64,000 bases of DNA. It comes from Escherichia phage FL20. Positions 51,887 through 56,824 of the stretch are shown here, piece after piece; position 1 is the first letter of the stretch; every line of letters starts with the position of its first letter. The position numbers were made by a program, and so were the translations under genes. The notes beneath the pieces are model-generated. The model was not told where the DNA came from, did no database searches, and saw only the letters and a program-made list of their open reading frames with translations. The stretch lies in the sequence record PP400781; one strand, given 5' to 3'.

Positions 51887-53119
51887 TTATACTGCCATTT
51901 GAGCGGTGATTGCTGGATGGCTTTGATAGTTGTGAATTTTAAAGTCTTTCGGAGTCTTTGTCAATACCTCATCTAAAGATTTAAATTCCGGCAACTCAAT
52001 CGTTGGTTTATCAAACGGAACACGGCTTAACTGTTCCATAACTTGATCAAAATGGTTTTTGTAAATGTGAGTATCTCCACCAGAGAAAATCAGTTCTCCT
52101 ACCTCAAGATCACACATTTTCGCTATGATGTGAGTTAACAGCGCATAGCTGGCGACGTTAAAGGGCAAGCCTAAAAAGCTGTCTACGCTTCTCTGAAACC
52201 ACATACAAGACAGTTTACCTTCATTGACGTAGAATTGCACGAAAGGATGACATACACCCAATACAGCATTATGTGTTCCTTGTACGTTCCATGAGTCAAT
52301 AATGATCCGGCGATCCGTTGGATTGTTTTTAATTTGTTCAATCACGTTTTGTAACTGGTCTTCCCAAATCTTCTGGCGATAGACATATTCTTCATCGTCT
52401 TTAGTGCTCGATGTGTCTACGTCCATACTAGCAAAGATCGTGGTATCTGGTGCTAAAATATCCCCACCCAGATAATCACTATCAAGCAGATAACCGAAAT
52501 AACCATCATCTACCCATTCCTGGAATCCCCACAAGCAATATGCATCATTAACAAAATTAGATTGAGTCTTCCAGTGGTCTGCTACTAAGAATAGATTATA
52601 CTCAGAATCAAACTCTTCATAACGCATACCACGCCAGATAGCACATAAACGGTCTTCTGTTTCATTGGTTGGCGTAAAGTCTTCTACCCACGGGTGCTTA
52701 AATGTATGTGCATATTTGCTCTTAACGCGCTTAATTTTGATTTCACCGTGTGGATGAATCGGTTTGCGTCGCCATGCCATACCATACATATTGCCGACAT
52801 TATAACCATTGAATCGCAAAGGATTCTTTTCTTTCATATCAAGACAGTTGCCGCGCCAAATGTCGAAGGCTTCTTCGTCAAACTTACCGCGTGTAATTTC
52901 CTGTAAGCGACGGCGGTCAAGTGATCCCTCCATAAACCATAGCAATTCACCAATTACAGAGGCTGTAGCCATCTTTTTAGTGGTCAGTAAGGGGAAACCC
53001 TTGCTTAAGTCAATTCGCATTTCTGCACCGAATTTAGAGAGCGTACCTATCCCCGTTCGGTCTTCACGAGGCCAGCCATTATCAAGAACATCACGCAACA
53101 GTTTCAAATATTCTTTCAT
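51887..53119 (-). CDS. td: thymidylate synthase with a ~135-aa in-frame insertion
   Basis: 410 aa; ThyA blocks DRTGIGT, RRIIIDSWNV, CHPFVQFYV, LGLPFNVASYALLTHI, C-terminus HNYQSHPAITAQMAV; extra segment between residues about 119 and 253. Confidence 0.9.
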   Translation of the reverse strand: MKEYLKLLRDVLDNGWPREDRTGIGTLSKFGAEMRIDLSKGFPLLTTKKMATASVIGELLWFMEGSLDRRRLQEITRGKFDEEAFDIWRGNCLDMKEKNPLRFNGYNVGNMYGMAWRRKPIHPHGEIKIKRVKSKYAHTFKHPWVEDFTPTNETEDRLCAIWRGMRYEEFDSEYNLFLVADHWKTQSNFVNDAYCLWGFQEWVDDGYFGYLLDSDYLGGDILAPDTTIFASMDVDTSSTKDDEEYVYRQKIWEDQLQNVIEQIKNNPTDRRIIIDSWNVQGTHNAVLGVCHPFVQFYVNEGKLSCMWFQRSVDSFLGLPFNVASYALLTHIIAKMCDLEVGELIFSGGDTHIYKNHFDQVMEQLSRVPFDKPTIELPEFKSLDEVLTKTPKDFKIHNYQSHPAITAQMAV

Positions 53120-54050: not shown

Positions 54051-54380
54051 TCAAACCAGCTTGAGATAGTTTTCGTTAACGTTTTCTTCTGTGATCTCGG
54101 TTTTAAACTCATTACCAACATCAGGAGAAACATAATAGCGTTCGGAATAATCACGCCACATTTTCAGTAGGCTGACACCAACATTAACACCATTTTCCCA
54201 GAAACGGAAGATAATTTTATTTGCGGTGTAGCGGTAATCGCTTTGAATCAAGCTGCCATCACCGCGACGTGATTCATAAACCGTAATACATTCACGGTTA
54301 GCGGCTTTAAGACATTCTTCAATAGTGCCGCATGAGATAATTTCGGTTGAGTCGTTTACGATTTGTTCTACAGTCCACAT
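54051..54380 (-). CDS. hypothetical protein (109 aa), PeSL-driven
   Basis: ORF directly after PeSL copy 16. Confidence 0.55.
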   Translation of the reverse strand: MWTVEQIVNDSTEIISCGTIEECLKAANRECITVYESRRGDGSLIQSDYRYTANKIIFRFWENGVNVGVSLLKMWRDYSERYYVSPDVGNEFKTEITEENVNENYLKLV

Positions 54381-54450
54381 AATATAATCCTCTCTTTGTT
54401 TCGATGTGTGTATTATACATTACCACATCAGCATGTCAACACCTTTTTCA
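54381..54450 (-). promoter_or_regulatory. PeSL cassette copy 16
   Basis: Conserved layout. Confidence 0.65.
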
Positions 54451-54465
54451 TAAAATTTTAGTCAA

Positions 54466-54491
54466 TAAAAAAGCCTCCCCGAAGGAAGGCT
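54466..54491 (-). terminator. rho-independent terminator after gene 32 (approximate)
   Basis: Hairpin agccttcc-TTCG-gggaggct plus T6 on minus strand; third member of the same terminator family. Confidence 0.7.
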
Positions 54492-54501
54492 TTAAAATTC
54501 A

Positions 54502-55503
54502 TTACATCCCTAACAGAGCGTCAAGATCATCCAGATCAGAAGCGGAGGAAGTACCGCCACCCAGATCCAGCGATGCCATCAGGTCATCAGCGGAAGAATC
54601 TAACGCCGTGCTAGCTGCGTTAATACCAACTACAGTGCTAGCTGCGTTAATACCAACTACAGTGCTAGCTGCGTTAATACCAGAATCGAATGCATTCATC
54701 TGTGCGTCAAAATCGTCAAGCTGGCTGTTAATCGCTGCCGCAGCACTGGAAGCCGCAGCACCAGCTACCATAGAAACGCCCATAGTTTTCTTAAATTTTG
54801 TTTCCAGTTCATCGAACGGTTTAAACTGGCTAGGCGCTACAATCTCACTCAGATCAACCATGTTTTCCATCAGATATTTCTGATATGCTTCGTCTTCAAT
54901 TTTCGGAAGCTGTGATTGCTGCATGAAACGAGAATCATCATAGTTCTGGTGTTTATCAACCTTCTTAGCTTTCAGGAGGAAGTTAGCACCAGAGAACACA
55001 CAAGTTACATCGACCGGAACTTCGCCCATATCGGTATTCACGTTCACCATTGCAACGATCTTATCATAAATTTTCTGACCGAAGCGGAATTTGAATACCT
55101 TACCTTCATTTTCTGGTGCTTGAGGATCTTTCAGTACCAGAATATTTGCGTAGTAAGACGCTTTACGCTTAATCAGTTGCCATTCGGTTTTATCGGTATT
55201 GTACAGGTCTTTTTCGTTAATATATTTGCACACAGGGCAAGAATCAAAATCACCGTGGGTGCTGGAGCAGTTTTCCCAATACCATTTGCCATTAACTTTG
55301 AAGGAATGGTTTACCAGTTTCACAATCGGCAGACCGTCTTCTGTCTTAGACGGCAGGAAGCGAATCAGGGCTTCACCGTTACCTGCTGCATCAGTCTTAA
55401 TCTTCCACTCTTTTGGATCTTCTTTGGAGAAACCGTTGCCACCTTTCAGTGCGGCCAGTTGAGCTTGCAGTTTGGAGCTATCTTGACGACGAAACATGTT
55501 CAT
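54502..55503 (-). CDS. 32: single-stranded DNA-binding protein gp32
   Basis: 333 aa; blocks [20 protein letters not shown] (zinc site), [31 protein letters not shown] match T4 gp32. Confidence 0.95.
54601..54681. repeat. in-frame tandem 27-bp repeat (3 copies) inside gene 32 encoding GINAASTVV x3
   Basis: Three consecutive 9-residue units at residues 275-301 of gp32; nucleotide units near-identical. Confidence 0.8.
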
Positions 55504-55563: not shown

Positions 55564-56160
55564 TTAATTGCTTGTCAATACTTTATCAATTATATCTAAC
55601 AGTTTTGGCTTTCTATTTTCAAATTCTAACATCTCTTCGGGAGAAATGTCAACTACTTCTGTTTTGTTGAAAAAGTTTGGGTCTATAGCATCAGCAACAA
55701 AGTTTCTCGCAAGTGCTGCCGCTTTCTCATGAACATATATTCCCAAATATATCAACTTCTTTCTTTCGACCTGAATATTGGCAACATATTTACCATCTCG
55801 TTTATAAAGACTAACACCGATATATTCAGACGATCGACCTTTCTGTTTACCCATATTTCTTGAGTTTTGTTGCTCGTTCGCATCTCTCAAGTTTTCAATC
55901 CGATTATCTGTTATAATTCGGTTAACATGGTCAACGTATTTTGGCATGTATCCATGATGCATAAAGAAAATTATTCTATGCTCTTTATGATGTTTACCAT
56001 CGATACACACCAATCTGTATCCATGACTAGGATTAACTCCACCCGCTCTAGATCCGACTTTATGCTTTCTGTTTGTCGATATCTTGCGAATCAGCTTACC
56101 GTTATCATATTTAAAGAGTTCATGACAACGAGCATACAATTCAGGATCATATGTTTTCAC
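55564..56160 (-). CDS. HNH-AP2 homing endonuclease
   Basis: 198 aa; HNH_3-type motif HRIIFFMHHG...VDHVNRIITDNRIENLRDANEQQNS followed by AP2 domain YIGVSLYKRDGKYVANIQVERKKLIYLGIY; occupies the segG locus of T4. Confidence 0.7.
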   Translation of the reverse strand: MKTYDPELYARCHELFKYDNGKLIRKISTNRKHKVGSRAGGVNPSHGYRLVCIDGKHHKEHRIIFFMHHGYMPKYVDHVNRIITDNRIENLRDANEQQNSRNMGKQKGRSSEYIGVSLYKRDGKYVANIQVERKKLIYLGIYVHEKAAALARNFVADAIDPNFFNKTEVVDISPEEMLEFENRKPKLLDIIDKVLTSN

Positions 56161-56824
56161 CTTTTAACCTCGATATTTCTTTACACTCTTTAACTACTTT
56201 AACAAATAATGCTCTTGCTTTTGCGGCGTCAATAACAAGTAGTTTCTTGTACGCCTTCATTTTAACACTATAAGTTTGCCAAATCAAGTCTTTGGCTACC
56301 TTGTCGTGTTCGTCGATTATATTTAGAAAGCTATCTAACAACATAAACGACTCAAACGATATAATCCGATTTTGCAGTAGTTTAAAGATACCGCTAGTTT
56401 CGGTTGCGGGATTATATGTAATTAGCTCTTTAAGAGTAACCCCGCGTTTCTCTGAGAAGTATACAAGACTTTTAATGTCATCGTCAAATCTTGTTGCTGC
56501 ATCTGTTATCTTTCCTATGTATTCCATATAAAAGCCGTATGCGTCAACATCAGTGATTTCACCTACCCATGCATCGGTATTAGCTACCAGATTGCTTAGG
56601 AATAGGAAGTATAATTCTCTTAGATTGTACTTTTCCGCTAATTTTGCGAAATAATACTTATCTCTGCGTTTATTGAATGCGGCATCAGATAACCGCATCC
56701 TCCAATTATATTTTACGCAATCATAACGCCCGTTCATATGAGCTTTCATCATGCAATATAACATATACACAGATTTAGCATTAATTCGCATATCTGGATC
56801 TGGAGGAAGACGGTTTCTGATCAT
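56147..56824 (-). CDS. 59: helicase loader gp59
   Basis: 225 aa; blocks GKSVY.LY.M..HMNG.YD..KYNW.MR.SDAA..KRRDKY.F.KL.EKY.L.EL, NLVAN.DAW.G, FKLLQ..IISFE.F.LLDSFLNIID.HD match T4 gp59. Confidence 0.93.
   Translation of the reverse strand: MIRNRLPPDPDMRINAKSVYMLYCMMKAHMNGRYDCVKYNWRMRLSDAAFNKRRDKYYFAKLAEKYNLRELYFLFLSNLVANTDAWVGEITDVDAYGFYMEYIGKITDAATRFDDDIKSLVYFSEKRGVTLKELITYNPATETSGIFKLLQNRIISFESFMLLDSFLNIIDEHDKVAKDLIWQTYSVKMKAYKKLLVIDAAKARALFVKVVKECKEISRLKGENI

Follow-up and report, generated by a model that had tools for sequence, protein, structure and literature searches.

An in-frame 27-nt tandem repeat of variable copy number in gene 32 of Escherichia phage FL20

In-frame VNTRs that arise by slipped-strand mispairing are known in bacterial and phage genes. 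Among E. coli SSB-type proteins, linker length differs widely between species, and it has been reported to affect cooperativity in SSB. The arrangement there is of a DNA-binding core, a flexible low-complexity linker, and an acidic tip that contacts partner proteins (PMC5892887, PMC4872115). The gp32 protein of phage T4, which is essential (PMC535899), has a C-terminal domain (residues 254–301; limits from PMC5892887) that contacts other replication and recombination proteins, and that folds back on the core to impose a kinetic block on duplex melting (PMC5892887, PMC12424635). This domain is described as disordered, acidic, and prone to divergence (PMC12424635, PMC5892887, PMC535899). T4 and RB69 gp32 differ by five residues in a serine cluster, T4 having the longer version, and an in-frame deletion within the C-domain, 32PR201, is viable (PMC535899).

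The genome of Escherichia phage FL20 was sequenced on a MiSeq instrument (2 × 250 bp) and assembled de novo with CLC, in a paper that does not discuss gene 32 (PMC12032242). Its DNA is 94–97% identical to that of the Krischvirus (RB49-like) coliphages. In the 64-kb stretch of this genome analyzed here (“the window”), gene 32 carries three head-to-tail 27-nt units within the part coding for the C-terminal domain. Like its T4 counterpart, this domain follows an OB-fold and zinc core, has a strongly acidic make-up that lacks basic residues, is predicted to be disordered, as that of T4 is known to be, and ends in a D-L-D-D-L-L-type tip; unlike it, it is some 30 residues longer and includes an exact, uncharged nine-residue repeat with which nothing in T4 aligns. 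As between T4 and RB69, the domain varies naturally in length, in frame and within a low-complexity part, and 32PR201 shows that such changes can be tolerated; the T4/RB69 difference, however, is fixed between species and retains no nucleotide repeat (PMC535899), while in Krischvirus there is a live series of one, two, and three units among isolates that are ~99% identical in the gene. The resemblance to E. coli SSB lies in the succession of core, flexible linker, and acidic tip; the sequences are unrelated, and gp32 does not form a homotetramer. With slippage VNTRs the locus shares identical head-to-tail units, a unit length that is a multiple of three, copy number differences between close relatives, and a layout expected from a slip of one unit. 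It differs from them in its range of only one to three copies, its long unit, and the lack of any on/off switching of gene 32; because the copies are few and the unit is long, the slip rate is probably low. In a literature search, no account of such an array in gene 32 came to light. The array is a fresh instance of a well-known type of variation, in a sequence that is itself already in GenBank.

Gene 32 and its 27-nt array

The repeat lies in a 333-aa ORF on the minus strand (54502..55503). In a Pfam search it matched the gp32 family PF08804 at 176.3 bits (cut-off 26.8; 1.1e-51) over profile positions 1–206 of 208, and it matched full-length T4 gp32 (PDB 8gme) at E = 6.8e-106 and RB69 gp32 (2a1k/2atq) at ~1e-102; over PDB entries 8gme, 2atq, and 1gpc, the T4 core among them, E values ran from 1e-94 to 7e-106. 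By homology it is clearly a T4-type gp32, as an earlier note on this DNA, made from the letters alone, had proposed. Its product matches XAO15410.1 of Escherichia phage FL20, the single exact record, at every residue; in a look-up of assembly contigs, none was found to encode the exact 333-aa form. Its third residue, Met3, aligns with the T4 start methionine, and the start codon of gene 32 may therefore be at 55497.

The ssDNA-binding core extends over residues 41–239 (54787..55383, minus), as delimited by the Pfam match, an alignment of 45 sequences, and AlphaFold2 confidence (pLDDT 86–94). Four zinc ligands, H66, C79, C89, and C92, do not vary across the 45 sequences aligned and correspond, with an offset of +2, to T4 His64, Cys77, Cys87, and Cys90. 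Upstream is gene 59, encoding the helicase loader (ORF 56147..56824, with T4_Gp59_N and T4_Gp59_C matches); the same order of genes 59 and 32 is annotated in RB49 and JSE. Directly 3′ of the gene 32 stop codon is an intrinsic-terminator-like hairpin (54470..54493, minus), a 10-bp stem followed by a run of T, and a terminator is annotated at the equivalent position in Ec_Makalu_001. In RB49 there is no indication of an mRNA pseudoknot operator of the T4 type (PMC535899).

Tandem Repeats Finder reported a perfect tract of period 27 at 54608..54682 (75 nt, 2.8 copies, 100% matches, no indels), whose score of 150 is the highest in the window, the next array scoring 59. In 64 kb, chance is not a plausible source of a perfect 48-nt self-match displaced by 27 nt. 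Placed in the gp32 reading frame, the 81-nt array occupies 54601..54681 (minus), exactly the span proposed in the earlier note, and codes for residues 275–301 as GINAASTVV, GINAASTVV, and GINAASTAL. In order of translation these are unit 1 (54655–54681), unit 2 (54628–54654), and unit 3 (54601–54627), all on the minus strand; the limits follow from the sequence, its translation, and alignment to relatives with one or two copies. Read on the minus strand, the codons for …FDS are followed by two copies of GGTATTAACGCAGCTAGCACTGTAGTT, then by GGTATTAACGCAGCTAGCACGGCGTTA, and then by GATTCT…. Units 1 and 2 agree at 27 of 27 positions, so that the repeat does exist at the nucleotide level, the point on which the earlier note had considered itself open to refutation; unit 3 shares its first 20 nt with them and differs in the last seven. 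This layout can be written U1-U1-U2′, two identical units followed by one with a different 7-nt tail.

The acidic C-terminal domain of FL20 gp32 (residues 243–333; 54505..54777, minus), recognized by composition and pLDDT, has 12 Asp + Glu and no Lys or Arg. The repeat falls beyond the core, which ends at about residue 240, and aligns beside T4 residues ~259–275, inside the T4 C-domain. AlphaFold2, run with a 45-sequence alignment, gave pLDDT below 50 at residues 244–258 and 277–324, with values of 31–36 in the region of the repeat (given for residues 281–310) as against 86–94 in the core. The units contain no residues other than G, I, N, A, S, T, V, and L, and are uncharged; copy number alters the length of the tail, and not its count of acidic residues. 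In FL20, the third unit adds nine residues (GINAASTVV) between an 11-residue upstream segment and an acidic tip beginning DSSADD. The model suggests that the repeat is a disordered, low-complexity spacer between acidic segments, and neither its composition nor its predicted structure makes it an obvious contact motif. The earlier note had placed it in the part of gp32 that mediates protein–protein contacts in T4, which holds for the domain as a whole; for the repeat itself, a spacer role seems the better description.

Beyond the spacer, the extreme C terminus is conserved. Residues 325–332 (54508..54531, minus) are predicted to form a short helix, and L327, D328, L330, and L331 show little or no variation among the 45 homologues aligned. 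Since this tip is encoded downstream of the repeat, all length changes in the repeat must keep the frame; each unit being nine codons, the frame is indeed maintained through to the tip at each of the three copy numbers. Counting from a conserved MG anchor, FL20 has a C-domain of 91 aa, two-unit alleles one of 82 aa, and one-unit alleles one of 73 aa. Among 100 gp32 homologues, with one annotation fusion set aside, the range is 52–91 aa with a median of 73, and that of FL20 is the longest. The one set aside (P0119, from phage phiC600P9) is a 392-aa “gp32” with an extra C-terminal PF05798 domain; probably it was fused to the downstream gene by annotation or by a frameshift, and its tail is not truly long.

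Copy number among Krischvirus isolates

The earlier note had expected that copy number might differ between isolates, and comparison of gene 32 across Krischvirus found one, two, and three copies. By nucleotide alignment of the repeat region, SAP, phiS, Ec_Makalu_001, and ECD7 have one unit; RB49, JSE, G2494, Cognac, and one IMG/VR contig have two; and FL20 alone has three. In JSE and G2494, the units have the same sequence as those of FL20. A wider count was made with a 261-nt query centered on the array: among 58 GenBank Krischvirus records (including six RefSeq/GenBank duplicate pairs), 46 had the two-unit length of 234 nt, 12 the one-unit length (~207 nt or equivalent), and none the full 261 nt, copy number being read from the sequence itself in 14 isolates and taken from the aligned span elsewhere. 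Two copies is the usual state, and FL20 has the only three-copy allele found.

From gene nt 706 to the stop codon, a distance of 297 nt, G5211 and W115 have no mismatches to FL20 other than the absence of one 27-nt unit (234/261, or 89.7%, against the 261-nt query). Exact look-up in public assemblies gave a corresponding result for the whole protein: FL20 gp32 less one unit (324 aa, P0135) is on record in 12 contigs, and FL20 gp32 less two units (315 aa, P0136) in one contig, each otherwise identical to the FL20 protein. The genes encoding these differ from that of FL20 by 9–11 substitutions (~1% of nucleotides), none of which changes the protein. On the sequences compared, this amounts to a series of one, two, and three units on a single protein background, in relatives ~99% identical in the gene; these are close relatives rather than demonstrated direct parents. 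Neither a four-unit gp32 nor versions starting at Met3 are on record by exact look-up.

Pattern scans extended the search for longer arrays. An exact 48-nt pattern spanning two junctions had no match in IMG/VR or the JGI metagenomes. With the pattern relaxed to two ACTGTAGTTGGT junctions at a spacing of 27 nt, there was no match in IMG/VR, one in GTDB genomes, and seven in metagenomes; by tblastn none of these matches encodes gp32, and they were rejected as chance periodicities in unrelated genes. No further gp32 allele with three or more units was thus found in IMG/VR, the JGI metagenomes, or GTDB genomes. The Logan assemblies, whose two-unit contigs come from SRA runs such as SRR18652161-167 and ERR13985834, use k = 31. 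At this k an array of three units contains repeated 31-mers and one of two units contains none; the lack of three-unit alleles in Logan is therefore uninformative, while its one- and two-unit contigs can be trusted for the same reason. Among 135 gp32 proteins, the tails showed only trivial near-repeats of five to six residues (MGTAA-MGTAA, for example), and the 27-nt repeat is therefore peculiar to Krischvirus.

A second duplication is found at the same position of gene 32. In KFS-EC, pEJ01, and a protein encoded by 38 assembly contigs (P0130; the three loci are L031, L032, and L022), the sequence here is GTTSAIAAS-VSTAAIAAS, whose two 27-nt units are 22/27 identical to each other and distinct in sequence from the FL20 unit; 011D4 (L033) has the matching one-unit allele. 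The junctions of the NAAST type (as in FL20) and of the AIAAS type both include a GTT codon that is missing from one-unit alleles, and this common codon slightly favors a shared origin of the two. Units are more alike within an allele (22/27, or at least 20/27) than between alleles, which would fit equally well with independent duplications and with a single old duplication followed by concerted evolution. Under either origin, the site is an indel hot spot.

Origin and possible consequences of the third unit

We think it highly probable that the array is a polymorphic in-frame VNTR in gene 32 that has recently gained a unit, by slippage or unequal recombination, in a disordered linker where the change is close to neutral. 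In the mechanism that we infer, the starting point would be the common two-unit allele, whose units have a perfect 21-nt core in common. Mispairing of the units by one register, during replication or recombination-dependent replication, would then yield one exact extra copy of unit 1, through either slipped-strand mispairing or unequal homologous exchange, giving U1-U1-U2′; the same process in reverse would give one-unit alleles. The protein would acquire a longer flexible tether with its charge and its conserved tip unchanged, and the third unit is probably near neutral in function. A recent slippage expansion was also the reading of the earlier note, and it is favored by the complete identity of the first two units, by G5211 and W115, identical to FL20 save for one unit, and by the U1-U1-U2′ layout, which fits a slip of one unit. 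Against this reading, the three-copy state is known from a single assembly. The 7-nt junction TGTAGTT is also without counterpart in one-unit alleles, so that the reading does not account for the first duplication. A phase-variable contingency repeat was also considered and rejected, the unit being 27 nt long and within a coding region, with all observed alleles in frame.

Of the other readings, the one with most in its favor, though still improbable, is that copy number is selected: spacer length could tune the fold-back of the acidic tail on the DNA-binding cleft, its reach to partners (gp59, gp43, UvsX/Y), or recognition by a host defense that senses SSB. In T4 the C-domain does govern both the kinetic block to duplex melting and partner contacts (PMC5892887), the FL20 C-domain is at the top of the length range, and the sequence-distinct AIAAS-type duplication at the same site suggests recurrence, although both types could stem from one old duplication, in which case the recurrence argument is lost. 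[quoted passage not shown] The low complexity, lack of charge, and predicted disorder of the repeat residues also count against selection, as does the finding of one-, two-, and three-unit forms on one protein background, as drift would produce. It is doubtful that the gp32 spacer is a tunable element in which nine-residue steps arose more than once (the NAAST and AIAAS types) and were kept for their effects on tether length; were it so, FL20 would be a natural long-tether variant.

Less likely still is an assembly or sequencing artefact in a phage that truly has two units. A single record has the three-copy allele, which was not found in the 58 GenBank records, IMG/VR, the JGI metagenomes, or GTDB genomes; assemblers, however, tend to collapse tandem repeats and seldom expand them. 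Copy number change at this site has been seen independently in other isolates, and the 81-nt array is short enough to be spanned, unique flanks included, by single reads of the 2 × 250-bp run (PMC12032242). Least credible of all is that the repeat acts as a DNA or RNA element or as antisense code, its effect on gp32 being incidental. The palindrome GCTAGC is present in every unit, and the mRNA segment has a predicted fold of −34.2 kcal/mol, but this is not significantly better than shuffled sequences (z = −1.82; 9 of 200 shuffles as good), and the only two matches in Rfam fell below threshold and lay at the terminator, with none at the repeat. On the plus strand a 159-codon ORF (54404..54883), which reads VLAALIPTT three times, stays open in each of 14 relatives examined, with lengths of 113–172 codons. 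It has no Pfam match and its ends vary; it extends across both the terminator of gene 32 and a promoter on the minus strand; and the ratio of synonymous to non-synonymous substitutions is 18:16 in its frame as against 23:11 in that of gp32, a weak test given that the two frames share their third codon positions. The homology of gp32, moreover, runs through the repeat to the conserved C-terminal tip. With no family match, variable ends, and weaker constraint than the gp32 frame, the antisense ORF was rejected as a gene; it is probably non-coding, and most likely a by-product of the Ala/Ser/Asp-rich codons of gp32.

Taken alone, a recent one-unit expansion of this kind is a small, ordinary polymorphism. 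As the longest natural gp32 C-domain found, that of FL20 may nonetheless differ in function, and the Krischvirus alleles provide a natural series of 73-, 82-, and 91-residue tails, on a gp32 otherwise identical, in which effects of linker length on auto-inhibition, cooperativity, and partner recruitment could be studied. The literature searched held no study of linker length in gp32; the question has already been studied for E. coli SSB. The repeat could also serve as a strain marker, a short PCR product being sufficient to tell one-, two-, and three-unit Krischvirus isolates apart. Finally, assemblies made with short k-mers could collapse or break gene 32 at the array, a point to bear in mind where gp32 serves as a phylogenetic marker.

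Neighboring loci

Between genes 59 and 32 of FL20 is a 198-aa endonuclease ORF (55564..56160, minus) with an HNH_3 domain and a weak AP2-domain match, overlapping the end of gene 59 by 14 nt. In T4 this slot is occupied by the GIY-YIG homing endonuclease SegG (PMC2988022); the nuclease in FL20 is therefore of a different family. FL20, G2494, Cognac, and many assembly contigs have the HNH ORF; RB49, JSE, G5211, and W115 lack it. The 5′ end of gene 32 itself (55477..55503, minus; codons 1–9) occurs in two forms, MNMFRRQ… and MFKRQ…. Among nine GenBank and IMG/VR relatives, all those without the HNH gene, and only those, have differences at gene nt 13–27; one HNH-carrying assembly contig (L026) differs at gene nt 25–27. 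Judging by these alignments, gene 32 of FL20 looks like a mosaic, its 5′ end resembling G2494 and Cognac and its 3′ third identical to G5211 and W115, and the 5′ end could be a co-conversion tract from the endonuclease.

Further along is a thymidylate synthase ORF of 410 aa (51887..53119, minus), residues 1–82 and 254–410 of which align to E. coli ThyA 1–82 and 110–264. At the position of the small domain it has ~170 residues in place of ~27, and the inserted stretch has no Pfam match. The enzyme is 406–411 aa long in relatives, and the insertion is therefore conserved in the genus.

The slot just downstream of gene 32 (54381..54501; in relatives, loci L022 2593–3030 and L024 4093–4530) is variable: some relatives have an extra 145-aa ORF with a Phage_pRha domain here, and others a 120-aa ORF, while in FL20 the next ORF follows directly (54051..54380, 109 aa, no family match). 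Immediately after the gene 32 terminator is a perfect sigma-70 promoter sequence (54412..54439, minus), with TTGACA and TATAAT separated by a 16-nt spacer (12 of 12 matches); it presumably serves frd and the ORF downstream as an early promoter.
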